Source: a virus
Lineage: Duplodnaviria > Heunggongvirae > Uroviricota > Caudoviricetes
Virus record (IMG/VR): IMGVR_UViG_3300032296_003759
Direction: 5' to 3' (one strand)
Length of the DNA: 64,000 nucleotides
The position numbers and the translations under genes were made by a program. The notes below the pieces were generated by a model. That model was not told the DNA's origin and did no database searches. It was given only the letters and a program-made list of their open reading frames with translations. Shown here one piece after another: positions 2,267 to 57,709 of this stretch; position 1 is the stretch's first letter; each line of letters begins with the position of its first letter.

Positions 2267-5200
2267 TTATGTACCACAATTTTCACCAAAGTCAATAGAT
2301 TCAATATTATCATCATTAGTTAATGGAGATGTATCTTTACCTTCAGATGTAGATTTTATTGTTTCTTCTGTTTGAGGATCTCCTTCCTCAGGTACAGTAT
2401 TATCTTTTGATATATTATTCTGAAGTTTTGCTTGAATCTCAGGGTATGAGTTTTCTAGTGTAAAGATAACTCTTCTATTTAATTTTACAAAATTAACTTG
2501 TGTTCCTACATTTGCAGGAAGTGAGTTTGTTACAAAATTTTCATTTACAAATGAAGAATATGGATATGAAAAAATTTCCTTGCTGCCGGGCCTATTAAAT
2601 CTTTCATCTGCAAACACAAAAGATTGTAATTTTTTCTCAAACTCAACTTTATTCATGTTTATTCTATATTCAGAAAAATCTGTCCTTACAGCTCTTTTAT
2701 CTGTAATTACCATTGCAATAGGTACATCTTCTTGATTTGTTTCCATTACAAATTCTATATCTTCTGAGTAAAATAGTTCTCTAATATAATCAAACATTTG
2801 AGAAAATGTTTCAGTACTTATTTCTCCCCTTTTTTGTCTAAAGTCTTCAATTTCAATTCTATATTTAGTAAAAGGTGATGGACCTAATGGATCTGTAAAA
2901 ATAAATTTTTTCTGTTGTATATAATCTATTATTGCACCAAAAGCATATTTTTGTTTGCCATCTTCTGACTGATAGATTCTCTCACCATTAATAGTTAAGT
3001 CTTTTATTCTTTTTCCAAAAAGTGGAATTGTAAGCTTAGAATTTGGGACAGGAAAATATGGAGCTCCATTTTTTATAGTTTGTCCATTAGCATCTTCATA
3101 ATATAATATTCCTGTTCTAATAATAGGATTGCTTTCTTCATCTAAGAATCCTAGTTCTATTAACTCTTGTACTGTTTTTGCTGTATTTTCAAATCCTGAG
3201 TCAGCTTGTATAGAATAGTTATTATTAATTCTAGAGGATGAAAGTTTTGAGTTTAAGGTAAGATTAAAATCAGCATATATCTGTACCCCTCTTGCTATTA
3301 ATTTTACTATATCTCCAGTAGGATCAAAATCTATTTCTGTATTATTTCTTATTGCTTCCTCTTTTTTCTTTTCCCACATTTCATCAAATACAGGTCTTCC
3401 TCCTTTTGTATTCGTTGGAATTTTATTTTGGGATTGTCCCAACATAATAGATTCTCTAGTTAATAGTATATTTGGAATTTCAGATCTATCTGTTCTAGAT
3501 GAGTATTCTGCAGTTGAAAATTCAAATGCTACAGGCATTCCTCCACTTTTTACAATATTTCCATTCTCATCAAAGTTTAATATTTTACCATCTTGATTAA
3601 CAATAACTGCAATTAAAGGTGAGCCTTTTTTGGAAGTTTGAATAAACCAATCTGCATTATTTTTATTACCAATCATTATCTGCAACCTAAACTGTCTCTT
3701 ACCATCTATCTCAGAAGTAAAGTTTAATGGTTCTAATTCATCTGAATATTTGTCTATAACATTTCTATGCCTTCTATGTTTTATTGCTTCTTTATCTATT
3801 CCAGCTGCTTTAGTTTGAATTACATCATTTTCAATAACAGGTTTATCATTTTTATCCATTAATACTTCTTGTGCACCAAGAGTTACAAATGTAAATATAC
3901 CATCTGATTTTGCCTGGTCAGAAAATTTACTAACATCATTTTCTTGTGATTGATAATCTGCATTAGTATTATCTACGGGTATAATTCCTGATTCTTTATT
4001 TTCATTTATAAGACTTTTTATAATTGATTCTATCTCGTTCTTTTTTGCATTAAATATAGTTCCTTCTCTTTTCGATAAGCTATTTGGATCTTCTCTATAC
4101 TTCTTTGCAATATTTGTTAGTGTATCTATACTTGGAGAAGAGCCATTTCTAAACTGTATCCATTCTTCATCTGATACAGGGTCTTTTTTAGACTCATCAA
4201 TTATAGATTGCATATAGTCCTCTGCAATCTTTTTATATTGTGGAAATTTTTTATTTGCAAGATCAATAATATTTGGATGAAATAAACTTCTTGTTAAATC
4301 AAGTTTATTAGGATCAAATTGTAATTTTCCATCTACATATACTATTTGATTTGCATCTTTTGCTATAGTATCTAATAAAGCATTTCTTTGTTCTTCTGTT
4401 AAACTTTTTAACTGTTTAATATTTATATCAAGAAGTGGATCAATAGTAGTTTCTTCTCTTCTTTTTTCTTCCTCAGATTTAGCAATTTCAGCAATTGCTT
4501 CATCTTTAGTTCCATAATTTAAACCTAAGCTTTCTCCTTTTAGATTAAATATTCCCCATGTACCATCTTCTTTTTGTCTTATTAGAAAATCTCCAAATCT
4601 TTCACCTGGTACTGTTTGTTCTTCTATAGGGCCTACTTCATCTTCATACTCCTCCTTAGTTATTGTAGTAAGATCTCCCGTATATTGATTCCTTGCTTCA
4701 ATACTTATAGGCTCTCCTGTTTTTTGATCTCTATTAACTGCTTCAACTTGATGTTCATCTAACTGGAATATAAAATAATCACCTCTCTTAAGATCCTCAA
4801 ATTTTTTCTCAGAGGAAACAGTAGGTGTAGCTCCTTCTAAATCAGATAGTTCTTGATTATATTTATCATTAATTTCTTTTTCAATAGTTTTTAATTTATC
4901 ATAGTTACTTAAGTAATAAGTAGCTATTGCTTTATTATTAATTTTATCAAGTGTACCTCTTTGTTGAAATGTAAATGATCCCAAAAATTGTTCTAATTCT
5001 TTAGGTCCTAACTTATTAAACAGATAATCTAATTTTTTAATAATATCAGAATTTAATATATCTAATTGTTTTACAATAGATTCTCTTTGTTTATTAACGT
5101 CTGATAATTCCTCTTCTGTAGAAGGTCTTCTTTCTTGATCTATGATAGTATTTCCAGAACTATCGGTACTTACGTAACCTATAAAATTACCACTGGAATC

Positions 5201-9842: not shown

Positions 9843-12509
9843 TTAGTAAACATTTTCTACGTACTGCATGTATGAATTCATAAATGATAGAGCATTAGGT
9901 GCACTAATTAGAGGTCTATCAATAGGTTTATTTACATCTGTTTTATAAAGATCATATCTCGCATCATTTTCTCCTAGTTTTACTACAGATAAAGTTGCAT
10001 TAATCATTTCACCGTTTGACCAAATAGGTAGATAGTGTCTATCTACAATATTTCCTATTTCTGTATCTCTAAATTTTTTAGTTCCTTGAATACTCATAAT
10101 AGCTCCTGCAGCAGATCTAGCATAGGGACTATTAATTGCTTGAGGTATTACTCCATATCCTGTATTTTGTATACTATAATAACCATTATCTAATTCTGTA
10201 ACTGCCCCTATTCCCATAGCACTTAAAGTACTTTGGTTACCTGCTCCTACTCCACTTATTATTACTTCTCCATCTCCTGTAATTGCAGATACAGATATAG
10301 ATTTATTTCTTTGACCTTCATCACCAAATTTGTATTGGATAGCTTCAATAAATGGACTTTCATTATCATATACACTTATATATTTTTTATTATTCCAGTT
10401 ACTATTTTTATAAACTCTATCACGAGCTGAATTTATTTGTTCACTAGGAGTTTCCATTGCATCTATTATATCTGTAGTATTTTGAATAAAGTTTTTTGTA
10501 TTATCACTCCACTTAACTGGTTTTCCATTCATATTTATTGAATATGAAGTTGCTGTTAAAGGCTCTATAAAAGGAGTAATCATAAATTCAGGTGATACTT
10601 CTTCTAGTCCTTTAGAAATACTAAATTTATTTCCTTTTTTTACAACTTCTTGTCCTTGAGACAATCTATACATTTCTGATGGAGTAAACTCAAAGTCTCC
10701 TAATTTTGTATTTTTTGTAAATCCTTTATCACTTAGGTTTTTATTAATAAAGTCATCAATATTACTGTAACCTAAATTTTCAGCTACTTCTTGTTCCTTT
10801 AACTGTAAAGTATTTTCTGTTTCTTTAAGTTTAGAGGTTGCTTGTGCATATGTTTTTTTATAGTTTTGAACTTCTTCTAAATTTCCAAAATTTGCAAGGT
10901 AACCTTGAACAAATGTTGTATTTTGAAATTGTTTGTCACCAATCATTAAATTATTATCTCTAACTTGTTTTGCAAACTTATTCAATGAAGCCTCAGAGAA
11001 ATCAGTATAGCCATAAGCAGTCAAAAGATTTTTTCTAAAGTCAGCCTCATTTGTTGCTTTTGTTATCATTGAATTAAATAAACCTTTATTCAGATTAATT
11101 AGATCACTATTTGCTTGATCTATATCAGTTTTAAGTTTATTAAAAACTTCTGATCCAGGAGTTTCAGGGGGTTTACTAAACAAACTCGGATCTAAAAATT
11201 GTTGATTTGGATTTAGTGAAATTGAACCATCTTCATTAAGTTTATATAAAGAATTATTCAATGGAGTTTTAAAAAACTGTCTAATTGATTCAAGTTTAAG
11301 TTGAAATCTTTGAGCGTTATCTTGCATTTGCTCAGCATGCTGAAATCTAGCACTTTGCATTGCACTCTCAAATTTTTGTCTAAGGGATTGAAGTTGTACC
11401 GGATCACCTGAGAAATCTCTTGTATATTCCCTAAATGCAAGACTTACAGCTTCTTTCCATAGTTTTTTATGTACATACATATTACCTGCATGACTATCAA
11501 AGTTTTCATATACATCAGTAAAATCTCCTGCTATTAACTTATCTCTTTTAGCTGTAATCTCAGTAACATTTTTTGTTATTTCACTTAAATCTTTTGCATA
11601 TTGTGTTGCTGCTTGTTTTCTTTCTTCCAAAGTCATTTTATTATTCTTTGAATTGAGAGATTGCATAGAAGTAGCAATTTCCTGTGTTTTTTTATTATAA
11701 AGATTTATTTGATCATTATATGAAGCAACTATTTCCTCACCAAAATCTTTTATTGGAACAGATCTATATGTTACAGATCCTTCTATTTGAAGTTGTCTTA
11801 TTGCAGGTCCAGAAAGATTAGATAATAAACAATTATATGCTTTTGATGCAGTTCTTTCTTTAATTTCAGTGTTAACAAAGTATCCAGTTATATCTTTACC
11901 ACTTGATCCATAGAATGGTAAATTGCTACTATTTTTATCTGCAGGACAGAGCTTTGATACTTTTTCATATTCAGAGGTATAGTCATAAAATGCCTCATAG
12001 TTTCTTGCTTGTTTTAGATATGCTTCTCCAGCGTTTCTATCTCCAGAATCCATAAATTCTTTTGCACCTTGTAAAGCATACTGATGATTATATTGACTAT
12101 AATACTTTCCGTGATCTTGTGTTCTTGCTCTCTCTGCATCAGCATTAATTTTCTTAATATGCTCTGTTGCTGCATGATCACTTATAATACCTTTATCTTG
12201 AAGTAAAGGTTTATAAATATCAATTCCCATTCTTTGTACAGATGCATTAGCAAGATTCATTGTTGATAATTTTGCTAACTGCTCTTCTGAATCTTTTAAA
12301 AATTTATCTCTTATTTGTTTGTTAGGTTCTTTACTAAGACTCAGATTTAAAGCATTTTCATAAACACTTTTAACCCTATAGGCACCTTCATCCCAATACT
12401 GATTTTGTGCAACGAGACCTTTAAAGATATCATTTATAGGTAATTCATATGGTCGAAAAGCACTTAACTGTTGATAATCAACCTGCTCATATGGTGTAAC
12501 AGCTGCCAT
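9843..12509 (-). CDS. large hypothetical virion/tail-associated protein (888 aa)
   Basis: Long ORF with ATG start, tightly packed in the operon. Confidence 0.7.
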   Translation of the reverse strand: MAAVTPYEQVDYQQLSAFRPYELPINDIFKGLVAQNQYWDEGAYRVKSVYENALNLSLSKEPNKQIRDKFLKDSEEQLAKLSTMNLANASVQRMGIDIYKPLLQDKGIISDHAATEHIKKINADAERARTQDHGKYYSQYNHQYALQGAKEFMDSGDRNAGEAYLKQARNYEAFYDYTSEYEKVSKLCPADKNSSNLPFYGSSGKDITGYFVNTEIKERTASKAYNCLLSNLSGPAIRQLQIEGSVTYRSVPIKDFGEEIVASYNDQINLYNKKTQEIATSMQSLNSKNNKMTLEERKQAATQYAKDLSEITKNVTEITAKRDKLIAGDFTDVYENFDSHAGNMYVHKKLWKEAVSLAFREYTRDFSGDPVQLQSLRQKFESAMQSARFQHAEQMQDNAQRFQLKLESIRQFFKTPLNNSLYKLNEDGSISLNPNQQFLDPSLFSKPPETPGSEVFNKLKTDIDQANSDLINLNKGLFNSMITKATNEADFRKNLLTAYGYTDFSEASLNKFAKQVRDNNLMIGDKQFQNTTFVQGYLANFGNLEEVQNYKKTYAQATSKLKETENTLQLKEQEVAENLGYSNIDDFINKNLSDKGFTKNTKLGDFEFTPSEMYRLSQGQEVVKKGNKFSISKGLEEVSPEFMITPFIEPLTATSYSINMNGKPVKWSDNTKNFIQNTTDIIDAMETPSEQINSARDRVYKNSNWNNKKYISVYDNESPFIEAIQYKFGDEGQRNKSISVSAITGDGEVIISGVGAGNQSTLSAMGIGAVTELDNGYYSIQNTGYGVIPQAINSPYARSAAGAIMSIQGTKKFRDTEIGNIVDRHYLPIWSNGEMINATLSVVKLGENDARYDLYKTDVNKPIDRPLISAPNALSFMNSYMQYVENVY

Positions 12510-12561
12510 TTTTACAAATTTATATTATATTTTTTTATATATCTATTAATATTATAGATTA

Positions 12562-37377: not shown

Positions 37378-38475
37378 TTAAATATCTAAGTGATATGTAG
37401 CAGAATCAAAATCTATTAAATATATAATAGGTGTTGTACCAACAGTTCCGGTATAAGTAAATTTTATTCCTAACTTACCAGAGGAAACATAAATATTATA
37501 TCCAGTAAATGCACTACCAGAATAGTTATAAATAGATTTTAAAACAGATTGTCTAGATACTTCTGCAGGAGATATTGGATCTGAACTACCTACAGGAAAA
37601 GTAAATAGAGATGATGCATCAACAGATGATGTATTAGCAGGAAAAACAATACTTGCTGAAGCCCTACCTTTAAATTCTATTGTTCCATCAAATCTAAATC
37701 TATAAAAAGCATTTGAACTAGGAATTGTAACAGAACCAGAACCAATTATTGGTAAAGGTTTCCAAACTCCATCAAAAGATTTTCTTATAGGAAATACAGA
37801 AGGATTTGTAAAAATAACATATGGATCTGAATTTGTACCACTTCCAGTTACTTGCACTACTCCATTAGGAGCTTGTTGAATTTTTGTTTCTGACCCATTA
37901 GGTGCAACATAAGTAGTTTTAAGTTTACCATCTGGACCAAGGGTAAGTGCATTTCCAGGATCAGAAGATATATAATTTATTAGAGGTGCAGTTTCTATTC
38001 TAAGTCTTTGATTACCTATTCCTCCAACAACTGACTTAGATAAAAGTGGTCCAACTTCTACTTTATTATTTAAGAAACTAGATGTAGTATCATTAGGACT
38101 TACTTTTACATTTACATCTACTCCAGCTGGTCCGATACCTGTGCCTGCAGTAATTAAAAGTTTTTTATCACATCCATCACCAACTTGTGTAATAGCAACA
38201 TTCTGTCCAGGTTGAATTTTATTTATAAGATTGCCAGGACAAAAATCTTCATGATCTATTCCAACTTTACCTAATAGATCTGTTAATTCTGCAATTTTAT
38301 TATTTATTGCAGAAATAACTTGTTTACCATTCATGTCATTACTAACCTTAATATCATGGTGATTTCCAGGTTTTGTAACACACTCAAATGTTGTAGGATT
38401 TAGACATCCACAATTATCATAGCAAGGATCTGAGTTACAAGGATCTTTACATTCATCATTATGATTACAAGACAT
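37378..38475 (-). CDS. tail fibre/receptor-binding-like protein (365 aa) with Cys-rich N-terminus
   Basis: N-terminus is MSCNHNDECKDPCNSDPCYDNCGC. Gly/Ser/Thr-rich beta-type composition. It is the last gene of the structural block. Confidence 0.4.
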   Translation of the reverse strand: MSCNHNDECKDPCNSDPCYDNCGCLNPTTFECVTKPGNHHDIKVSNDMNGKQVISAINNKIAELTDLLGKVGIDHEDFCPGNLINKIQPGQNVAITQVGDGCDKKLLITAGTGIGPAGVDVNVKVSPNDTTSSFLNNKVEVGPLLSKSVVGGIGNQRLRIETAPLINYISSDPGNALTLGPDGKLKTTYVAPNGSETKIQQAPNGVVQVTGSGTNSDPYVIFTNPSVFPIRKSFDGVWKPLPIIGSGSVTIPSSNAFYRFRFDGTIEFKGRASASIVFPANTSSVDASSLFTFPVGSSDPISPAEVSRQSVLKSIYNYSGSAFTGYNIYVSSGKLGIKFTYTGTVGTTPIIYLIDFDSATYHLDI

Positions 38476-38497
38476 ATATTTTTGTTTTATTTAGTTA

Positions 38498-43055: not shown

Positions 43056-43104
43056 AATATAAGATAATTAAAAAATGTGATAAATTAAAATAATTCTTTA
43101 AATT

Positions 43105-43142
43105 AAAAAGGGTAGCAGAGTCACTGCCCTACCACCCTTTTT
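43105..43142 (-). terminator. rho-independent terminator directly after the 642-aa abundant structural gene (bulged 8-bp GC hairpin flanked by A5/T5)
   Basis: aaaaaGGGTAGCAGagtcaCTGCCCTACCACCCttttt, read directly. Confidence 0.55.
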
Positions 43143-43160
43143 AGGTTTATTTTCAGAGGA

Positions 43161-45767: not shown

Positions 45768-46759
45768 TACTCATTCCATTTTTTCTCAACTTGATCTCTA
45801 AGTTTCTCAAAATCACTACGGAACTTAGGTTTATTGAGTGTTTCTATTGCTTCTAATATTGTATTTCCAAGAACTGTGCCATCTTCTGTTACATACTTCT
45901 TTTCTTTCATATTTATCAGACCATAATATTCTCCTGATTTAATATAAGCTTCAGTATATAATTGGGCTTTAGTTTGAGAACTTTTCCATTTTTCAAAGTA
46001 ATCTAAGAATACTTTTGGACAGTTTTTCTTTTTCTTTGTAACTATCTTACCATCAATATATTTTATATGATAGTTTAATAAGTCTTTGAAAGGTGTTGCT
46101 TTTGTATAAGCACCAAATGCATTTGTATCATATTGAATACACCAAGCAAGTATGAAAAGAGCTTCTGGATTTTCTTCTTTTCTTAACTCAGAAAGTGCTG
46201 AGTGAGCATCACTTCTTGTGATGTTATCTTCATCATCAAATGTTTCATCTGTTTCTAGAGCAAGATAATGTGGAATTTGAAATCTTTCAGCCCACTCTCT
46301 TGTTGGTGCAACTAGATCAATAAATGCTCCAGATCCAATACTCAGATATAATAGAGCATGTACTGGTGATTTTGTTACATCATAGAAAACATCAATTTCT
46401 TCATTTGAAAGTGATAATCTAGAAACATCTCTATTCTCTTTCCAGAAAAATGTATTAGTTTCACTAACAACATCGTCACCTCCATAGAAATCTATAATAA
46501 GAGGTTTAAGATTGTTTATTGTTTTTTCAAAGATCTCTTTTTCTTGATCATTAAACCATTTAAAGAACTTTACTTTCTTGTCATCTAGTCCTGTATTGAA
46601 TACTAATCTAGCATCACCTTTTGCATCTAGACCTACTTTCTTACATTCTCTATCAGAGACTCTTTTAAATGGTTCGGAGACTCCAGTATATCTAACTATT
46701 ACATCTCCTTCTTTTTCTGCTTTACCAGCAGTGTTCTTAATTGCAAATTTAATATTCAT
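45767..46759 (-). CDS. hypothetical structural protein (~330 aa); start moved from the track's GTG (46816) to the ATG at 46759 (MNIKFAIKN...)
   Basis: The GTG start lies inside a GC-rich hairpin region. The ATG has an A-rich leader. Confidence 0.5.
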   Translation of the reverse strand: MNIKFAIKNTAGKAEKEGDVIVRYTGVSEPFKRVSDRECKKVGLDAKGDARLVFNTGLDDKKVKFFKWFNDQEKEIFEKTINNLKPLIIDFYGGDDVVSETNTFFWKENRDVSRLSLSNEEIDVFYDVTKSPVHALLYLSIGSGAFIDLVAPTREWAERFQIPHYLALETDETFDDEDNITRSDAHSALSELRKEENPEALFILAWCIQYDTNAFGAYTKATPFKDLLNYHIKYIDGKIVTKKKKNCPKVFLDYFEKWKSSQTKAQLYTEAYIKSGEYYGLINMKEKKYVTEDGTVLGNTILEAIETLNKPKFRSDFEKLRDQVEKKWNE

Positions 46760-46829
46760 ATGTTGGTTTTTAGTTGTAAGTTTAGTTGAGTATCCAGAAC
46801 CGCCACGTGGAGGCACTTACTGGTTCCAA

Positions 46830-46876
46830 GGAGGCTTCTTACGGGAAACCTCCCACTTTGACGGTAGATAACTACC
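46830..46876 (-). terminator. two GC-rich hairpins just downstream of the capsid-candidate gene (GGTAG-ttat-CTACC and GGAGG-n14-CCTCC); attenuator/terminator or processing structure
   Basis: Read directly. No clear T-run follows. Confidence 0.4.
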
Positions 46877-46884
46877 TTGATTTC

Positions 46885-48576
46885 TTAGAGAGCTGCAATA
46901 CCAGTTCTAGGGTTCTTAGGAACAAGTTTTAACAGTTTAGTAGGATCTTTTACTACAGCAGTATCTGCTCTTCCTACAAACTTAACTTGATATCCAGAAA
47001 GTTCATCACTTGAATTGGTAACTTGGATATTCTGACCATTGATTGAAGTACTTGTTCTCAACAGAGGATGGGTATCTTCACCAGCTTCAACCATCATTCT
47101 CAGTTTATTACCTTGTTTTCTGATAATTGCAATATTGTCTCTAGATGTATTATAATCTTCAATCAACATTGTATAAGAAGAAAGTCTATAACCAGAAGCA
47201 AGTACAGGGTTTACAAACTCATCAGCTTTTACAGGATCAAATCCAGGTTCCCATTGTACTTCTAAGTAACCAATGTTAGGAATTTGATATCTAGTAAATC
47301 TTGGAGCATTGTAAGTAAGGTTACTAGCCTGACCTGTAATAAATCCATGATCCATGTTATGAACCTGTGCAGGAATTTGGAATCCTTTTTTCATGAATGC
47401 TTGATAGAACAATTCAGATCCACCTCTACCAGTTTTAATAACATAAGTATTATCAGAGATAGATTCACGGAGAGGAACTTTACCAAATTCAAAATCTTTA
47501 ATTGCATCTGTGATTGTATCCAGAGTAAAGCTTTCGATAGAGTAAGTATGCTTGTAACCAGCAAGATCAAGTTGGAACCAAACACCAGGTACCAGACGAG
47601 TTGTATCATAACCATCTCTCAAGAGATTAACTTGGTCAGACCAAATCATCAAGTCATTGTTTTGTTTCAACAACATGTTGATAGCAATACTATCCAGTAA
47701 GTTTACAAAAGCAGCTTCACCATTACCTTTAGCTTTTTCCTCTTGAAGTCTATCCCAGTAAGCTTTATAGTTTTCAGGGTTAGTCATGTTGATAACTTTG
47801 TTATCAGCAATACCTCTTACTTGATAGAACTGAAGAGTCATTTGCTCCATCAGAGAAACTTGCTTTTGATCAAATCTTGTATTAGTATTCAAATACTCAA
47901 CAGCACCAGAAGAAACTCTGTAAGACTGTTGTAAAAGAGCATTTGATAAATAGTTCTTGTATTTAGCAAGAGAAGGAACACCACTTACACTCCAAGTAGA
48001 TTTATAAGAAGAGAAGTCCAGACCTCTAATATCAGCTAATTTGATAATTTGTCTTTGAGGTTGGAACTCAGCCTTAGTTACATATTTAACTTGAGCGTTA
48101 GTATTCAATACTGCCCACAATTTGTAATGTTCACCAAGTTGCTCGATAGGTCTATCAACAACTGTAAAAGATACTCTTGAAGTCAGATCAAATTTAAAAA
48201 TTGAACCAGGAGCAAGATCTCTTCTTGTAACAACAAAAGGAATCTCTTCTCCATCAAGACCAATTTTATCTTTGTCTAATCCACCACTAACAAGACGAGT
48301 TGTAGCATCTGCAGCAGAAGGAAGTTCAAAAGTATAGTGATCAGCACCAGTATATACAACCTGAGCATTATCAATAGCTAATGTCAACAATGGAGAATCA
48401 GTTCTTTGTTTTAGAGCCCAAAGATCTAATACGCCAAAGTCCAATGGCTTTTCAGGTGCAATAGCTGTTACATAGGGAATGTCTACATGGTTTTTAATAC
48501 CAAGTGACCTTGTTTGTCCAATAAAGATACCAGGATGTCCCAAAGTACCTAGTCCTTGTAGTGAAGTTTGTATCAT
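46885..48576 (-). CDS. putative major capsid protein (563 aa)
   Basis: Canonical TerL-portal-scaffold-capsid position. Less AT-rich codon usage. Structured region downstream. Confidence 0.45.
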   Translation of the reverse strand: MIQTSLQGLGTLGHPGIFIGQTRSLGIKNHVDIPYVTAIAPEKPLDFGVLDLWALKQRTDSPLLTLAIDNAQVVYTGADHYTFELPSAADATTRLVSGGLDKDKIGLDGEEIPFVVTRRDLAPGSIFKFDLTSRVSFTVVDRPIEQLGEHYKLWAVLNTNAQVKYVTKAEFQPQRQIIKLADIRGLDFSSYKSTWSVSGVPSLAKYKNYLSNALLQQSYRVSSGAVEYLNTNTRFDQKQVSLMEQMTLQFYQVRGIADNKVINMTNPENYKAYWDRLQEEKAKGNGEAAFVNLLDSIAINMLLKQNNDLMIWSDQVNLLRDGYDTTRLVPGVWFQLDLAGYKHTYSIESFTLDTITDAIKDFEFGKVPLRESISDNTYVIKTGRGGSELFYQAFMKKGFQIPAQVHNMDHGFITGQASNLTYNAPRFTRYQIPNIGYLEVQWEPGFDPVKADEFVNPVLASGYRLSSYTMLIEDYNTSRDNIAIIRKQGNKLRMMVEAGEDTHPLLRTSTSINGQNIQVTNSSDELSGYQVKFVGRADTAVVKDPTKLLKLVPKNPRTGIAAL

Positions 48577-48595
48577 AGTTTATTTTTGTTTTATT

Positions 48596-49825: not shown

Positions 49826-49865
49826 ATGTTGGTTTTTTATACAATTTTATAATAAACATTTTAAG

Positions 49866-49882
49866 TTAATTTTCCAAATATA
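49866..49882 (-). promoter_or_regulatory. promoter-like motif TATATTTGGAAAATTAA (minus sense), 41 nt upstream of the scaffold-like gene
   Basis: Contains the TAnnTTTG -7 box. The 14-mer TTAATTTTCCAAAT (plus) recurs identically at 57652-57665. Confidence 0.5.
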
Positions 49883-49926
49883 TTGTTATTTAAAATATGT
49901 CTATTTTACAATATATACTAAATTAT

Positions 49927-52701
49927 TTATTTTTTCTTTCCTATCTCAGCATTAGTCTTATTTTCTTTTGCAACTTTAAGTGCATACTCACCTTTTATCT
50001 TTTCTTTTTGAATTTGAGAATTTGCTTTCTCTTTCTCTATAATCATTTTATTAGCCTCACTTTGTCTCTTAAGATTACTTTGCTCTGCAATTCCTGCTGT
50101 TTTTGCTTCAAATTCTTTTTGTTTATAGTAAGCATTAAGATTCTCACTTGCATCAACAACATCATTTTGATTATTATCAGATTGTAATCCACCCAATGCT
50201 CTAATTGTAGCAACTTCAAGATCTTTTTGTCTATCAAGTTCAGCTTGTTCAGCTTCATAAGCAAGTTTCTCTTGTTGCATTTTCTCATTACTTTGAGCTT
50301 GTTTATCTGCCATTTCTTGTTCGTGAGCTCTTTGTCTTTCTTCTCTTTCAACTTGTTCAAGTTCACCTTTCTTAACAAGATCAATAATAGATGGTATAGA
50401 GCTTTGTACTATAGCCTCTATTTTTGCAGAAGGTTGTATTGGAAGTGTATTTTCACCTAATAAGAACTGACTTATCATTTGTAATGCACCTCTTACATTT
50501 GCTCTTGTTTGTAAGAATATATTATAATGTGGCAATAAATTATCCATACCTTCTATCTCTAGAAATACGTTCTGTTCTTTATCATTCATGTATATATCTC
50601 TAGATTTCTCTACAAATGTACTATAATATTGTGCAGCATCCAACATTCTTTGTCTAACTCTTTGCATTAAATTTCCATGTTGCTCAAAATACTTCTCAGT
50701 TTGAGTTTCTGAGAGCTGTATACCTTGTTGTATTCCATATGCTGTTTCAGTAGGTTTAATTTGACCCATTCTCTCTCTTGTGATACCTATAACCTCACCT
50801 GCTTCCATTTTAAGCATTTGTGCAAGCTGCATATAGAATTGTGCTTCTTGTACTGTTGTTAAACTAAGTATTTGTGGAAGAGCTGGTTGACCTACACCAT
50901 CTAGTGCTTCTCTAGATAATGTATAATCAAATATATCAGACTCTCTAAGTTTTTCATCGTATGCCTCCATTGGATCTACTGTATTTGTAGAATTAGATAG
51001 ATTGTTTGTTGACATAATCCTTCTATCAATAGCTATTTTTGTTCCATAGTCTTTTAAAATCTTTTTAGGAACTCTATTCATTGCAATATTATAGAGAATC
51101 TGGAATGGTTTTAATCTATCTACTAGAGAATGTGTAGATGTATTTATGTGACTAAATATACATCCTTCTACAGGTGGTAAAGAATCAAATGGGTTATTTC
51201 TTCCTTTAAATTGGAACTGCACTGGATCTCCATCAACATATATTGAATGAAGAGTATTCTGGGAATTCATCCAGAATGTATGTTTCTGGTTTGGAGATAT
51301 TTTAATTACATGTCTCCACTCAGGTACCCAAGTCCAGTCAACATGTTCTCCGTATATAAGATTATCTTTTGTATTTTCCTTTGTAATTGAGTTATCATAT
51401 TTTGGCTCAATAGTAACTTTAAAATTTTCATCTATCCATTGTGACTCCTCATAGCTTCCATCTCTGTTTATTTTTGTTAACCAACCAATTCTTTTCATAG
51501 CCCTCCAGTATAATCTCATTACTCTAAACATTTGAGGTTGTCCGGTAACTCTTCTTCCCCAAACAGGATTAAGTAAATCTACTTCTTGATTATGATCAAA
51601 GTTAGGTGATCTCATAAAGTTATATGCAAGTTCTTTTCCAAGTAGTGCATCATTCATTACAGGATCCATATTAGTTGCAGTTGCCCAGTCTTTAGATAAA
51701 TCATAGTGTGCACCCTGGTGACTCTTTAAATAATCTGGTACAATTATATTTGCAGTTTTTACATATATTTCTTTTAGTTTTACTAAATCTTCTTCCTTCA
51801 TCCTTCTTCCATATCTATTTACAATATCTCCAGAAGACATAAACTCAAACCATAAAAAATAATCTCCATCACTTACATACTTAACATTAGGACCTTTATG
51901 ATAATCACAGAACTTAGGATTTAATAATTCTAATTTAAAGTCATCATCAAGTAAATCAATATGCCAAAACTCACTATCAGATATAAGCATTGACTCAAAT
52001 GCATCTGGTTCAAGTTCATATAGATTATATCTTTTCTCTTGTATCCTTACTACCTTCTCTGCCCATTTTGTTCCAGTAGTTCTATAATTTCTAGCTTTTA
52101 TTTCAAGTTCATTAAACTTAGCCATTGCCTTTTCATACTCTTGCTGGTATTCTTCAGGATTTTCTTCTTCAGAGAATCCCATCATAGCTAATGATTTCTT
52201 TTTCTCAACTTCTGCAAACTGTGTAATTATATTTCTAAACTCATCTTGTTTAAACTTAAAAGCCTCATCTACAGAATATTGATCAATTGCTTGTACAGTC
52301 CACTGATTATCTCTTTTAATAAATTCACCTCTCAAAACATCTATGAAGTTTGGAACAAGCGGATAAAACTGCTCAAGTGGAGATTGTGATTCTTGAGGAA
52401 CAATCATTCCTATAGCTTGAGAGTATTCATTTATATCAGGATTGATTATATAATCTGACTGATTAAGTTTTCCATATCTCATCCAATAGTTCTTTTGGAT
52501 TCTACCTGCTCTTCTCTCTACATTTAACCACCCTGCCATTTCATAGTAATCTGCTACAGCTCTTACCCAATCATTAGTCTTTTCTTCCATTGTAAGCATC
52601 TGAAATGGAAGTAAGTCATCAATATTTCCTCCAAGTAATGTATTACTATCTAATTTGAAACCTTTATATAGATCTTGTCCCCAAATTAATTTTTTTGCCA
52701 T
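49927..52701 (-). CDS. putative portal protein (924 aa)
   Basis: Immediately downstream of TerL. Portal-sized. C-terminal K/E-rich tail. Confidence 0.5.
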   Translation of the reverse strand: MAKKLIWGQDLYKGFKLDSNTLLGGNIDDLLPFQMLTMEEKTNDWVRAVADYYEMAGWLNVERRAGRIQKNYWMRYGKLNQSDYIINPDINEYSQAIGMIVPQESQSPLEQFYPLVPNFIDVLRGEFIKRDNQWTVQAIDQYSVDEAFKFKQDEFRNIITQFAEVEKKKSLAMMGFSEEENPEEYQQEYEKAMAKFNELEIKARNYRTTGTKWAEKVVRIQEKRYNLYELEPDAFESMLISDSEFWHIDLLDDDFKLELLNPKFCDYHKGPNVKYVSDGDYFLWFEFMSSGDIVNRYGRRMKEEDLVKLKEIYVKTANIIVPDYLKSHQGAHYDLSKDWATATNMDPVMNDALLGKELAYNFMRSPNFDHNQEVDLLNPVWGRRVTGQPQMFRVMRLYWRAMKRIGWLTKINRDGSYEESQWIDENFKVTIEPKYDNSITKENTKDNLIYGEHVDWTWVPEWRHVIKISPNQKHTFWMNSQNTLHSIYVDGDPVQFQFKGRNNPFDSLPPVEGCIFSHINTSTHSLVDRLKPFQILYNIAMNRVPKKILKDYGTKIAIDRRIMSTNNLSNSTNTVDPMEAYDEKLRESDIFDYTLSREALDGVGQPALPQILSLTTVQEAQFYMQLAQMLKMEAGEVIGITRERMGQIKPTETAYGIQQGIQLSETQTEKYFEQHGNLMQRVRQRMLDAAQYYSTFVEKSRDIYMNDKEQNVFLEIEGMDNLLPHYNIFLQTRANVRGALQMISQFLLGENTLPIQPSAKIEAIVQSSIPSIIDLVKKGELEQVEREERQRAHEQEMADKQAQSNEKMQQEKLAYEAEQAELDRQKDLEVATIRALGGLQSDNNQNDVVDASENLNAYYKQKEFEAKTAGIAEQSNLKRQSEANKMIIEKEKANSQIQKEKIKGEYALKVAKENKTNAEIGKKK

Positions 52702-52703
52702 AG

Positions 52704-54935
52704 TTATAGTATTGAATGAGATTTTTTAAATCTTCTGTTTGTGTTTAAATTTTTATATGACCCTCCTCCTAGCATTGAAATCTTTTTTGGAGGAATGTAA
52801 ATTTGTTCTTTTGGTTCCTCTTTTACCTCATTTATAGTAGGTATTCCAAACTCACTTTCATAGACTTTACCTATTGTTACTGCAGCAGTATGTGATACAA
52901 TTCTATCAAAGTTATCTTTCTCATTATATCTGATATACTCCTCTATCAACCAATAATCATCAGTTCTGTCTATTCCATTATATATTTTAAGAACTTCTCC
53001 ATCTGCTTTTTCTCTCCTATCAAACTCTGTCTGGAAATATTCTTTTATGTTACTCTTAAGTATCTTCCACATGTTATTCTGTGGTGATATAATAAATCCA
53101 TAGTTTGATACAGATAATCCAGCGTTAACATTAAGATCTTTAAATACTGGTACATCAGACTCTTTTGCTAGATATCTTTCAGCTCTACCATTTCTCTTCA
53201 TATAGTTTATGAAGTTTGGTTTAGATCTTTCTACATAACTGAACGCATTGTACATTTTTATAAGTAACCATGCTTGTTCATTTGATTTTTCTACTGGATT
53301 ATATCTTCCTCTATATGTAGCTACAATCTTCCCTCCCTCAACTCTTGTCTTTATTTTTCCGTCTGTATCCTTATACTTAACTCTTACCATTCTCCTATAG
53401 ATATCTACAGACATAACTGAATGTGATGTTGTTGTAACATCTACCTCAACTGTATCTACTCCTGCAAAGTTAGTTAACCATTTTGGATTTTCCTCGGGCA
53501 TTTCATAAATTGTAACAACACCTCTTTTATCTTCCCAATCTGGTACAATTGGATATCTATGTTCTTCAGGAAGGTTGTTGGTTTTTAATTTAACCTTACC
53601 TGATTCATCTTCCTCAAGAACACACTTTATCGGTTTAAATTTCCATTTATTCTCTTTATCCTTTATTTTTATTCTTTCTTGTTGTGCAAGAAGTTCATCA
53701 ATTGGGAACTCAGAACTTTTTCTTTGTGCAAATGCTTCTTTTGGACTAAGTGGTTTTTGAGATATATCAAGTTGAGCAAGATCTTTTCTTTTCTTAGATC
53801 TTATAGCTTCATTATTTTTAGATACAAATTCTGTTGCTTTCTCAACATCAGAATTTCCCTCTTCATCTATAAAACCTTCAAGATTATATGCTTCTGAAAC
53901 AAAAAGTCCACATGGTTTACCTCTCATTTCATTATCATCCCATATATTTTCTATTCCTAAGAAATTATGAGATTCAGGATCATAAAATACTTCTTTAATA
54001 TCTTCTGCATCATCTAAGTCACCAACTGATCCAGAACATATAATTAATCCTGTAGTTTTATTACCTTTTTCAAGTGCAGGTCTAATGTAACCAACTGTTT
54101 GTAATAATGTAGGTGCAACACCTGCCTCTTCATAAAAGAATATTGTTTGAGATCCACCTACACCATTTTCAGGTGAAACTTTAAATGTAGTTGCAGATAA
54201 CTTACTATCAAGTCCTACATATCCACCATCTACAAGAGGAGTTCTTTCATACCACTCTAAAGATTTTGGTACAATTGGACCTCTCTTCCATGCAGTTGCT
54301 CCTGAGTTTAAATGTTTTCTATAGAACTCTAAGAATCTCCAGGACTTTACGGTATATTCTTCTTTATATGCACCAATTGTATTTACAGAACTTTCAAACC
54401 AAGAATAACTCCAGTATAAAAGAGCCATTATTTTAAAAGAGTAACCTCTTTGTCTAGTTTTTACTATACATGCATGTTTTCCAGTTACCATGCATAATGT
54501 TATATAATGAAAGAACCAAAGATCACTATCCCATACATTTCCAAACATTTTTTTACCTACAACATCATTGTATATAGGACAGAAGTTTAGGTACCAATAA
54601 TAAAATGGAGGTATATAGATATTGTCTATAATAACTCCATTCTTTACTTTTTCTTTCTCGTTTGCCCAAAACTGTTTATATTTATGAGTACCCTTGATTG
54701 CTCTTGTATATTGGCCCCCTTCAAAATTTGGCTTATTTACACTATTTGCATATTGCATTCCTGCATCTTGCCATCTTCTTGTATTTTTTAAATTATATTT
54801 TCCAGGAAGTTTAAATTGTGATCTTATATATTTTTCAAAATCCTCTTCCTTTTCAAATACTTGATAGTCAATACCTTCTTTTGAAGTATCTATCTTTTGT
54901 ATCTTTAAAGGAAATTCCCAGATTTTATTTAACAT
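52704..54935 (-). CDS. terL: terminase large subunit
   Basis: Deviant Walker A VKTRQRGYS (K.RQ.G.S). Walker B-like TIFFYEEAG. Asp-rich nuclease region LIICSGSVGDLDDAED. 743 aa. Confidence 0.7.
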   Translation of the reverse strand: MLNKIWEFPLKIQKIDTSKEGIDYQVFEKEEDFEKYIRSQFKLPGKYNLKNTRRWQDAGMQYANSVNKPNFEGGQYTRAIKGTHKYKQFWANEKEKVKNGVIIDNIYIPPFYYWYLNFCPIYNDVVGKKMFGNVWDSDLWFFHYITLCMVTGKHACIVKTRQRGYSFKIMALLYWSYSWFESSVNTIGAYKEEYTVKSWRFLEFYRKHLNSGATAWKRGPIVPKSLEWYERTPLVDGGYVGLDSKLSATTFKVSPENGVGGSQTIFFYEEAGVAPTLLQTVGYIRPALEKGNKTTGLIICSGSVGDLDDAEDIKEVFYDPESHNFLGIENIWDDNEMRGKPCGLFVSEAYNLEGFIDEEGNSDVEKATEFVSKNNEAIRSKKRKDLAQLDISQKPLSPKEAFAQRKSSEFPIDELLAQQERIKIKDKENKWKFKPIKCVLEEDESGKVKLKTNNLPEEHRYPIVPDWEDKRGVVTIYEMPEENPKWLTNFAGVDTVEVDVTTTSHSVMSVDIYRRMVRVKYKDTDGKIKTRVEGGKIVATYRGRYNPVEKSNEQAWLLIKMYNAFSYVERSKPNFINYMKRNGRAERYLAKESDVPVFKDLNVNAGLSVSNYGFIISPQNNMWKILKSNIKEYFQTEFDRREKADGEVLKIYNGIDRTDDYWLIEEYIRYNEKDNFDRIVSHTAAVTIGKVYESEFGIPTINEVKEEPKEQIYIPPKKISMLGGGSYKNLNTNRRFKKSHSIL

Positions 54936-55450: not shown

Positions 55451-56249
55451 TACTTAGTAATTTTAACATTTCAACTACTTCTTTTCTTCTGTAAGGAAGT
55501 GTTATAGTTTCAATTTTTTCAACAATTGGTTTATCATCTACAAGAACTGGTATATTATCGTTATCAGGATCTCTTTTGAGATGAATGTGTTCTATTATAA
55601 TATCTCCAGGTCTAAGTTTACCCTTATTAGCTTTCCACAAAAGATACATGTATATTGACATCTTTATAGAATATACATTTCCATTACAATCATCTAGATG
55701 AGAAAGTGGCCCAAGTAACTTTTTAGGTTTTACCCACTTTGATGAGAAAGAACTAAATTTTATGTCTGCATCAGTTTTATAGTCCCAAATATGTATTTTA
55801 TTATCAACTATAATAACTTTATCAGATTGTCCACATATCATATTCTCAAAGTCATATATCATTAATTCTGGGTATACTTTATTATTCTCTAAAAGTGATA
55901 TATCTAAAGAATATTTATAGTTGCCATCAGATTGATGGTTTATTACATCACACTTCTGATTATAGAAAACAGGACACTCCTTCAAATCTAGGAGCTCCTG
56001 TTCTCTAATGTTATGATATATTGTACCTACTTTTGCTGATATATCTCTCTTGATCTCCCACTTTTTCAATATATCATCTGTAGTTGTTGGATTTCCATTA
56101 CCTGTCTCTTTTGCTGCAATTTTTTTTGCAACTTTTTTCCAGTCAGTCTTTTCTTTAAACTTTTCTGTAAATTTAGATACAGATATTAATTCTAACTCTT
56201 CATCTGAAATATATCTATGTGAATCTTGAATGAATTTTACCTTACTCAT
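55431..56249 (-). CDS. PD-(D/E)XK nuclease (RecB/Cas4-like), 272 aa
   Basis: GQSDKVIIVD ... IWDYKTD matches motifs II/III (DYKT signature). Confidence 0.5.
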   Translation of the reverse strand: MSKVKFIQDSHRYISDEELELISVSKFTEKFKEKTDWKKVAKKIAAKETGNGNPTTTDDILKKWEIKRDISAKVGTIYHNIREQELLDLKECPVFYNQKCDVINHQSDGNYKYSLDISLLENNKVYPELMIYDFENMICGQSDKVIIVDNKIHIWDYKTDADIKFSSFSSKWVKPKKLLGPLSHLDDCNGNVYSIKMSIYMYLLWKANKGKLRPGDIIIEHIHLKRDPDNDNIPVLVDDKPIVEKIETITLPYRRKEVVEMLKLLSNDSKDT

Positions 56250-56544
56250 TTACAGTTGCGGTGAATTTCAACATAACAGATTCAGTATCATTATACTGAA
56301 TTGTGACAGCTTTTTGCTGCAAACCTGTTGAACCTGGGGTAAAAATTACATCTAAGTCAGCCTCCTCACCTGGAGAGATTAATGACTTTTGTAAACTTGC
56401 ATTTGTACATGATCCACAACCTACCATTACTCTGTTGATAGTTATTGGATTATCAGATGTATTCTTTATAGAATACTTAAAACTGTATGGTTGTCCATAC
56501 TTAAGATCTCCTAATGAGATCACATGTTGGTTTGGTTCTAGCAT
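56242..56544 (-). CDS. DUF1573-like small protein (100 aa)
   Basis: YSFKYSIKNTSDNPITINRVMVGCGSCT...PGEEADLDVIF matches the F(K)NTG..PL.I...SCGCT...PGE pattern of the Bacteroidota DUF1573 domain. Confidence 0.45.
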   Translation of the reverse strand: MLEPNQHVISLGDLKYGQPYSFKYSIKNTSDNPITINRVMVGCGSCTNASLQKSLISPGEEADLDVIFTPGSTGLQQKAVTIQYNDTESVMLKFTATVNE

Positions 56545-56900: not shown

Positions 56901-57258
56901 ATCTTTTTTTTCTTATTTGGTTTCTTTCTTCTAAATATTCCTCATAATCCTTCAATCTCTCTGTAAACAATTCATATATCTCTCTTTTATTCTCATACTT
57001 GAGAAACTGTCTTTCTGATGTAAAATCCTCTTTTGTTCTTGAAAAACCCTCTGGATAATAGTTTAGTATTTCTTTAACTCTTTTTCTTCTTAAAAAGAAA
57101 GAACCTATTCCTTTAATCTTTATAATTAATTTTGAGGGTCTTTTTTGTTCTTTATATAACTCTGAGAAAATAAAGTTACCAATATCCTTGTAAGTCTGTT
57201 CAGATTTACCTGTTCTTTGAGAAGTAAGTTTATATAGTTCATTTGGGTTACTCTGCAT
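56857..57258 (-). CDS. hypothetical protein (133 aa)
   Basis: ORF. Confidence 0.45.
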   Translation of the reverse strand: MQSNPNELYKLTSQRTGKSEQTYKDIGNFIFSELYKEQKRPSKLIIKIKGIGSFFLRRKRVKEILNYYPEGFSRTKEDFTSERQFLKYENKREIYELFTERLKDYEEYLEERNQIRKKRYETQVLLEPTDGED

Positions 57259-57616
57259 GACTAACTACATGATTTATAATTAGTTTATCAAAGTCTGTAG
57301 ATGGTATAAACACATCACTTACTTTTAGAATTGTATTCTTTGGTTTCTCAAAGATTCCGATATTTGTATACTTTGATAAGGCATTTCTTACACTCTGATC
57401 AGTTTTTTTATAGTTTTTATCAATACAAAGCTTTATAAACCTTGACTGTTCTTCACTATTGTTATATCCACCAAATAAGAAAAGTTCTATAATAATATCT
57501 ATATCATTCTCAGATGATTTGATATTATTCTGTAAAAACTTCAAATACAGGTGATATTTTAAAACGTCCCTTTTCTTCGTTAAAAGAACCTTATCTGAAA
57601 AAGACTTTATTTTCAT
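57248..57616 (-). CDS. hypothetical protein (122 aa)
   Basis: ORF. Confidence 0.45.
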   Translation of the reverse strand: MKIKSFSDKVLLTKKRDVLKYHLYLKFLQNNIKSSENDIDIIIELFLFGGYNNSEEQSRFIKLCIDKNYKKTDQSVRNALSKYTNIGIFEKPKNTILKVSDVFIPSTDFDKLIINHVVSHAE

Positions 57617-57651
57617 GTTGGTTTTCTTTACTATAATATACTGAAAATAAA

Positions 57652-57668
57652 TTAATTTTCCAAATTTA
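57652..57668 (-). promoter_or_regulatory. promoter-like motif TAAATTTGGAAAATTAA (minus sense), 36 nt upstream of gene 57248..57616
   Basis: Same 14-mer as at 49866-49879. Contains a TAnnTTTG box. Confidence 0.5.
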
Positions 57669-57709
57669 TTTTGAATAATTAATATATACAGTTATTATAA
57701 CATAATAAG

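Follow-up and report, generated by a model that had tools for sequence, protein, structure and literature searches.

The closest described counterparts of the sites considered here are the middle and late promoters of the crAss-like Cellulophaga phage phi14:2, which were mapped by primer extension and carry an extended tripartite motif that includes -35-like and -10-like blocks (10.1101/2020.03.07.982082). They proved active in vitro with the E. coli holoenzyme (Drobysheva et al., 10.1101/2020.03.07.982082; Nature 2021); the virion RNA polymerase of phi14:2 transcribes the early genes, the middle and late genes are rifampicin-sensitive, and in other crAss-like phages similar motifs stand ahead of tRNA genes, of the portal gene and of gp092, which separates portal from capsid (10.1101/2020.03.07.982082). 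Our own reading of the phi14:2 genome gives the layout as an A-tract, (C/T)TTG, 19-21 nt, TAnnTTTG and 4-6 nt to the ATG, and five of the seven sense-strand matches to it are intergenic. The same layout recurs in crAss001, where CTTGAC-N-TACTTTTG lies between the terminase and portal genes. A second point of reference is Flavobacterium, in which the -7 element TAHHTTTG occupies -12 to -5, transcription starts 4-5 nt later, AT-rich motifs lie at -18 and -28, and TTTG forms a -33 element (PMC6847099).

The window, by which we mean the whole stretch of 64,000 nucleotides that was analysed (30% GC), is dominated by an almost gap-free block of minus-strand genes that runs from 2267 to about 60900 and contains the following landmarks.

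52704-54935, minus strand: large terminase gene
49927-52701, minus strand: portal gene
46885-48576, minus strand: gene for a capsid-like protein similar to the major head protein of phi14:2 (alignment E = 1e-5)

Gene order in this block is crAss-like. A search with the portal protein returned distant relatives only, at 22-27% identity, nearly all of them crAss-like phages with Bacteroides, Flavobacterium and Cellulophaga as hosts. At the DNA level, a 6-kb megablast query matched nothing among GenBank phages, and Rfam recognised a tRNA-Cys only. The same phage is present on at least 22 metagenome contigs, and independent gene calls leave identical intergenic gaps. Precomputed Pfam assignments on identical contigs also give a 100-aa product with a DUF1573 / Ig-like domain at 56242-56544 (minus strand). 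Within the block, the first-pass annotation had picked out a recurrent late-module promoter motif, which it took to embed the Bacteroidota sigma-A -7 box TAnnTTTG. We propose that the motif is probably the upstream half of bipartite promoters, which the host polymerase would read with its primary sigma factor and from which a divergent crAss-like phage would express its middle and late genes. The original promoter call is upheld by the sense-strand orientation of the motif, its almost exclusively intergenic position and its fixed downstream partner; the assignment of its -7 box is not.

On the coding (minus) strand the repeated 14-mer reads ATTTGGAAAATTAA, and a window-wide search recovered its plus-strand form TTAATTTTCCAAAT as exact copies at 49866-49879 and 57652-57665, as had been reported. 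These end 40 nt upstream of ATG 49825 and 35 nt upstream of ATG 57616, in keeping with the distance of 36-41 nt given earlier, and the letters of the variants quoted at 59719-59735, 60884-60903 and 37011-37038 are likewise correct. Two nearer variants, at 37284-37297 and 36028-36041 with one mismatch each, were absent from that list. The exact copies had also been placed in the only sizable intergenic gaps of the module, which is mistaken, as there are others at 34331-34440, 35725-36046, 36473-36640, 36887-37377, 43056-43160 and 46759-46884.

Repetition of a 14-mer is not significant by itself, since the window holds 222 same-strand repeated pairs of that length (65-87 in Markov simulations, about 75), an abundance that favours reading the motif as a functionless chance recurrence of AT-rich sequence. 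Generic sigma-70 scans point the same way: they list the same hexamer pairs, and their totals are not usable as evidence because in DNA this rich in AT they are no better than those of shuffles (99 vs 93.6 and 60 vs 85.7). Only two 14-mer families in the window have both copies fully intergenic, and ATTTGGAAAATTAA is one of them; the other, AATAAAACAAAAATA (minus strand, 38477-38491 and 48581-48595), is an A-rich leader before gene 37378-38475 and before the capsid gene. With up to two mismatches the 14-mer has 12 matches against 5.4 expected, a number reached in none of 100 shuffles, and ATTTGGNAAATTA with up to one mismatch has 10 against 2.07 (again 0/100). Sense-strand noncoding DNA makes up 2.2% of the module and holds five of these ten ATTTGGNAAATTA matches, or between 5/10 and 5/12 of motif matches overall, while matches within genes are about as numerous as chance predicts. 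The motif family has close variants in five sense-strand intergenic gaps, and what is non-random about it is placement, orientation and a fixed downstream partner.

That partner is a TATATT, TATTAT or TATCTT box, which follows TTGGnA by exactly 17 bp in every intergenic copy of the motif and is replaced by TATAAT in some relatives. Seven promoter-like sites in the window can be described in these terms, along with five hairpins resembling intrinsic terminators.

49842..49886, minus strand: promoter A, in the gap that separates the portal gene from the 409-aa gene preceding the major capsid gene; by pattern match, the originally annotated motif at 49882-49866, -33 hexamer TTGGAA 49877-49872 and -10/-7 box TATTAT 49854-49849; start predicted near 49842, with a leader of ~17 nt ending AAAACCAACAT before ATG 49825
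57628..57672, minus strand: promoter B, upstream of the 122-aa gene 57248-57616; by pattern match, TTGGAA 57663-57658 and TATATT 57640-57635; start predicted near 57628
59695..59739, minus strand: promoter C, upstream of the 154-aa gene 59231-59695; TTGGAA 59730-59725 and full -7 box TATATTTG 59707-59700, 4 nt before the ATG
37260..37304, minus strand: promoter D, directly after the hairpin 37333-37314 and upstream of tRNA-Cys; TTGGTA 37295-37290 and TATATT 37272-37267; predicted start 37260, predicted to drive a 27-aa Cys-rich ORF 37174-37257
36998..37042, minus strand: promoter F, directly after tRNA-Cys (37042-37113); TTTGAA 37033-37028 and box TATATTTA 37010-37003, then a 30-aa ORF 36890-36982 and gene 36641-36886; predicted start 36998
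36004..36048, minus strand: promoter E, predicted to drive a 59-aa HTH-like ORF 35793-35972 that ends at the terminator 35772-35748; TTGGAG 36039-36034 and box TATCTT 36016-36011; predicted start 36004
60885..60930, minus strand: promoter G, heading the minus-strand module, gene ATG 60876; A-tract, degenerate -33 TTTTCA 60920-60915 and full -7 box TATATTTG 60897-60890; predicted start 60885
37314..37333, minus strand: intrinsic-terminator-like hairpin, which would end the preceding transcription unit immediately ahead of promoter D
37146-37122, minus strand: terminator-like hairpin
35772-35748, minus strand: terminator-like hairpin
34430-34413, minus strand: terminator-like hairpin
43128-43114, minus strand: terminator-like hairpin

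The spacing of the two blocks was examined on sites chosen by the upstream block alone, namely the 228 sense-strand occurrences of [AT]TTTGG that the window and eight relatives contain. Of these, 27 have a TAT[ACT][AT]T box at spacer 17, compared with 0-6 at each other spacer from 8 to 30, and the antisense strand gave three cases; a hexamer spacer of 17 bp corresponds to 20 nt from TTTG to TA. The strict pattern TTGG.A-N17-TA.WWT matches the window five times against 2.16 expected, with four of the five matches in sense-strand intergenic DNA, and TATATT is the top enriched non-homopolymer hexamer of sense noncoding DNA (9.8-fold, p = 4e-8). A logo was also built from 31 sites; the pattern by which these were picked fixes its core columns, so that only the non-core columns and the spacing test count as independent evidence. 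Among the unselected columns, the A-tract and an AAATTAA block are conserved, a G directly precedes the downstream box in 18/31 sites, and T at position 35 is followed by a purine at position 36 in 28/31, at the predicted -1/+1. The last T and the closing G of the downstream box occur in 13/31 sites each, and AT-rich blocks occupy logo positions 6-12 and 16-21, that is, near -28 and -18 when compared with the Flavobacterium promoters (PMC6847099).

If the downstream box is set at -12 to -5, the G of the TTTG in the originally annotated motif falls at -33 and AAATTAA at -30 to -24. Read along the coding strand, each promoter would then open with an A-rich tract at about -45 to -38, followed by TTTG(G), the AAATTAA block and a -10/-7 box TATAtT 17 bp past TTGGnA (TATATTTG in the best sites), with transcription predicted to start 4-5 nt beyond it. 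On this alignment the motif is the upstream (-33/-28) half of each predicted promoter and the first-pass annotation was one element out of register: the TTTG that it placed in a -7 box behaves as a -33 element, and the -7/-10 box lies 17 bp past TTGGnA. At 60884-60903 the quoted variant is itself a -7 box, with a degenerate -33 element 17 bp upstream, so the earlier list of variants mixed the two kinds of element.

The original register, in which the motif itself holds a -7 box TAnnTTTG, transcription starts inside GAAAATTAA and leaders measure 30-36 nt, has several observations in its favour. TAnnTTTG is matched literally at sites A, B and C; counted from the hexamer, 22/31 logo sites have T at -5 and 25/31 have A at -4; the A-rich tract sits where a -18 AT-rich motif would; and TAHHTTTG is enriched in sense noncoding DNA, which has seven of its 46 occurrences in 2.2% of the sequence. 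We nevertheless judge it decidedly unlikely. Sites D and E and three orthologues of A (in relatives L004-L006) have no such 'TA', yet all of them keep TTTGG and the downstream box, and no enrichment of TTG was found 19-21 nt upstream of the motif's TA when the spacing test was applied to the window and eight relatives. It would also leave unexplained both the sharp 17-bp coupling to TATATT and the fixed 4-nt distance from box to ATG at sites of the C type, and in phi14:2, where starts are mapped, the upstream block is CTTGAC or TTTGCA, which does not resemble a -7 box. In a weaker form the two registers could coexist as tandem starts, a second start at the upstream block being possible because TAnnTTTG fits there in about 22/31 sites. 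Two further candidates were set aside. An alternative -7 box for promoter A, TAAAATTG, stands 25 nt past TTTG and resembles phi14:2 P092; it was rejected because TATwAT at 17 bp is conserved and the TTG of TAAAATTG is not, in L002, L003, L005 or L006. The AT-only palindrome AATTT-N3-AAATT was dropped as a dimer-binding site: its arms are short, and the fixed downstream coupling explains the data better.

Comparison with related phages bears on the preferred bipartite reading directly. Six IMG/VR relatives (L001-L006) have portal identities of 55-89% with the window, three of them coming from contigs of 155-165 kb, and a second query added four more loci. In all six, the orthologue of promoter A keeps TTTGGnAAATTAAyTTAAAAnGTnTATwAT between diverged flanks, and in L002, L004 and L006 the region upstream of the site is unrelated. 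Promoter B has orthologues with both blocks and their spacing in L001, L002, L004, L005 and L006, promoter C has orthologues in L001, L002 and L005, and the site 2 kb upstream of that of the 122-aa gene shows the same pattern of conservation as A and B. Relatives whose portal is only 55-66% identical still keep both blocks and the spacing. Promoters D, F and E have orthologues in L126 (L126:7187, L126:7451 and L126:8481, respectively), and the distant relatives L127 and L128 each carry four to six aaaATAAATTTGG-N17-TATATTTG sites in a tRNA-rich accessory region, many of them 4 nt before an ATG. A scan of IMG/VR for TTTGGNAAATTAA-N11-TATNNT is uninformative on the spread of the motif, because its matches (at least 118) are mostly single and on unrelated contigs. 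Architecture, placement, spacing and conservation are in this sense observed properties of the sites, and chance recurrence is refuted by the conservation of orthologous positions down to 55% portal identity together with the spacing test; it also fails to account for the restriction of the sites to intergenic DNA on the sense strand. For an uncultured group of large crAss-like phages, the comparison yields a promoter model, aaaaTAAATTTGGaAAATTAA-N10-G-TATATT(tg).

What these sites would do can be projected from their positions, with the polymerase, the start sites and the timing taken by analogy from phi14:2 and the Bacteroidota promoter rules. Promoters A and B would give short leaders of 12-17 nt ending AAAACCAAC. 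At promoter C the gap from box to ATG is 4 nt, so that the start is predicted at the A of ATG 59695, a leaderless geometry, and the mRNA would begin at AUG. No terminator stands in front of A, B or C; these promoters would therefore add to read-through transcription, and most likely boost expression of the capsid operon and the small-gene units. Promoters D, E and F, in contrast, would combine with terminators to form separate small units around tRNA-Cys: D follows the strong hairpin 37333-37314, and together with E, F and three further hairpins it would make up these units. Promoter G heads the whole module, and independent gene calls give the gene after it a 253-aa product. The suggestion that the apparently monolithic operon contains at least five transcription units holds to the extent that several units are indicated by the seven promoter-like sites and five terminator-like hairpins, counts that come from sequence. 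An apparent single operon is thereby split into predicted transcription units, and the predictions include a single leaderless gene and a strong boost for a few others, the capsid operon among them.

Several features around these sites deserve mention in their own right. The leader motif AAAACCAAC, followed by 0-4 nt and ATG, occurs at 49840-49826, 57630-57617 and 46772-46759 (minus strand), that is, before the genes downstream of A and B and before the one that follows the capsid gene. All of the relatives L001-L006 retain it, and it may signal the start of translation in place of a Shine-Dalgarno sequence. The gene that follows the capsid gene has its start at ATG 46758 and not at GTG 46816. 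The gap that precedes it, 46759-46884 (minus strand, with orthologues in L002-L006), is GC-richer and has a conserved RNA-like structure, consisting of a hairpin followed by a stem, GGAACC...GGTTCT, whose loop contains CCUCCACGUGG; across six phages, compensatory changes affect 5/9 predicted pairs. The 59-aa ORF 35793-35972 (minus strand) forms a unit of its own between promoter E and the terminator 35772-35748, is conserved in L126, has weak sub-threshold matches to HTH_11, HTH_36 and GntR, and could encode a small DNA-binding regulator. Very short Cys-rich ORFs, MKKNDALFGCGCGKPRP... and MVMNQNKYEPCCTQCPIEGGCIICIKK, follow promoters F (36890-36982) and D (37174-37257) on the minus strand, and L126, L127 and L128 have ORFs that open with similar GCGCG-type peptides after promoters of the same kind. 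Between the minus-strand module and the divergent genes lie about 200 nt of noncoding DNA (60930-61140) whose GC content is unusually high by the standard of this genome and which have no Rfam match. Two places on the minus strand are possible promoters without a full upstream block. At 12515-12522, TAAATTTG stands 5 nt before the ATG of gene 9843-12509. The other, 34345-34373, follows the terminator 34430-34413 and would have to be active for transcription to resume in the 32-kb block downstream; it has TTGGTA (34373-34345), but we did not accept it as an eighth site, its downstream box being ambiguous in both the window and L126.

In assigning the sites to the host polymerase we need to account for how much of promoter A is conserved. 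T4 middle promoters combine a MotA box at -30 with a host -10 element, and activator-dependent promoters, such as those of T4 and the late promoters of lambda, typically have a weak core element. The GGnAAATTAA block, with the conserved spacer at A, might in the same way bind a phage factor in addition to core recognition by the host enzyme; an activator or a sigma-remodelling protein that switches these promoters on at middle or late times would be of this kind. In length and in conservation the block exceeds a usual -33 element; the promoter A spacer, AATTAAyTTAAAAnGT, survives in full even between the unrelated flanks of L006; and none of the orthologues of A has the TTTG with which a -7 box ends. 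We consider such a MotA-like site rather unlikely, however, as an AT-rich motif centred at -28 is normal in Flavobacterium promoters (PMC6847099), the block is far less conserved in L127 and L128, phi14:2 promoters of similar type are transcribed in vitro by E. coli sigma-70 holoenzyme alone, and no candidate factor was identified. The stronger proposal, a separate class of late promoter in this phage lineage that needs a phage-encoded factor and has the 14-mer as its recognition site, is suggested by the retention of TATAAT/TATTAT at A in all seven genomes, the near-invariant spacer and the lineage-specific block TTTGGnAAATTAA, and we regard it as unlikely. The extended block, the promoter A spacer and the atypical box do exceed the needs of a plain host promoter; a phage factor is a possible, unsupported and on balance doubtful reason for this, and were it the true one, the 14-mer would be more than a strong -33/-28 element.

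Promoters for a phage-encoded RNA polymerase would be another reading, and crAss-like phages do carry such an enzyme in the virion. The phi14:2 enzyme, though, transcribes early genes, whose transcripts have no common upstream motif, and it is the middle and late genes that are rifampicin-sensitive; the present sites have the -35/-10 layout of the sigma-70 family with a 17-bp spacer and lie inside the structural module. The DFDxD polymerase motif was not found in the large proteins of the window, and we consider promoters of this kind very improbable. Recognition by host polymerase and primary sigma factor is retained as the probable reading.

This raises the question of which host is involved. 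A Bacteroidota-type promoter architecture and host are plausible, though not on the grounds originally advanced, since the -7 argument is not supported. The fit rests instead on the bipartite geometry, on the rarity of Shine-Dalgarno-like sequences (before only 3/44 genes), on TAHHTTTG boxes 4-5 nt before ATGs and on the crAss-like gene order. Against it stand the TATAAT/TATTAT box of promoter A and the fact that the cultured relative with the most similar portal carries an annotation as a phage of the cyanobacterium Leptolyngbya. A scan of bacterial genomes with the portal alignment for a host found no relative. The Leptolyngbya phage Lbo-JY46 (L131, PP438436.1) has Bacteroidota-style TAHHTTTG boxes of its own, TAATTTTG and TAACTTTG, at 2145-2220 and 4885-4965, in the gaps before the portal gene and the next gene. 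Taken together, the sites in the window add sequence-level support for a host that does without Shine-Dalgarno sequences and has Bacteroidota-like promoters.

Set beside known systems, the sites reveal nothing new in mechanism. Compared with the E. coli sigma-70 consensus (TTGACA-17-TATAAT) they have the same 17-bp spacer, and TTGGAA agrees at 4/6 and TATAAT/TATATT at 5-6/6 positions; the context differs, being that of a host not using Shine-Dalgarno sequences, and related sites end in TTTG. The resemblance to T4 middle promoters is one of function only, in that a phage-specific extended element takes the place of the -35 region, or enlarges it, at a fixed distance from a host-type -10, but no factor like MotA or AsiA was found here and the window element retains a normal TTG. 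Comparison with Bacteroidota sigma-A promoters had been proposed in the earlier work. The G of TTTG at -33, the 20 nt from TTTG to TA, the AT-rich blocks near -28 and -18, the purine at the predicted +1 and the absence of Shine-Dalgarno sequences before genes all conform, whereas the full -7 element TAHHTTTG is present at C and G only. Site F has 7/8 of its positions, B, D and E keep TAnnTT, and promoter A with its six orthologues keeps TAnnnT alone, in the form TATTAT or TATAAT, a poor match to the Bacteroidota -7 consensus. The -33 element also differs in strength, as it is weak in Flavobacterium chromosomal promoters while the -33/-28 region is far better conserved in the window (PMC6847099).

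The nearest analogues are the promoters of phi14:2, and because layout and positions are shared we class the present sites with middle and late promoters of that type. In both phages the sites are intergenic and on the sense strand of the structural and expression module, with the same two-block layout, and those of the window precede the gene between portal and capsid, head the module and adjoin tRNA genes: A sits between the portal gene and the 409-aa gene, and D and F flank tRNA-Cys. The 409-aa gene is equated with gp092 by gene order only, since BLASTP detected no similarity between its product and phi14:2 gp092. The geometry of promoter C is that of P110, TATCTTTGtagtATG. An A-tract (-45 to -38) and an AAATTAA block (-30 to -24) are conserved beside the two main blocks here, and one or the other may correspond to the third block of the phi14:2 motif. 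The differences are that the upstream block in the window is ATTTGGnAAATTAA rather than CTTGAC or TTTGCA, that the capsid-operon promoter has TATTAT/TATAAT and not TATATTTG, and that the predicted promoters of the window belong to a very distant phage. The promoter layout mapped in phi14:2 thus extends to relatives whose portal proteins are only ~22% identical.
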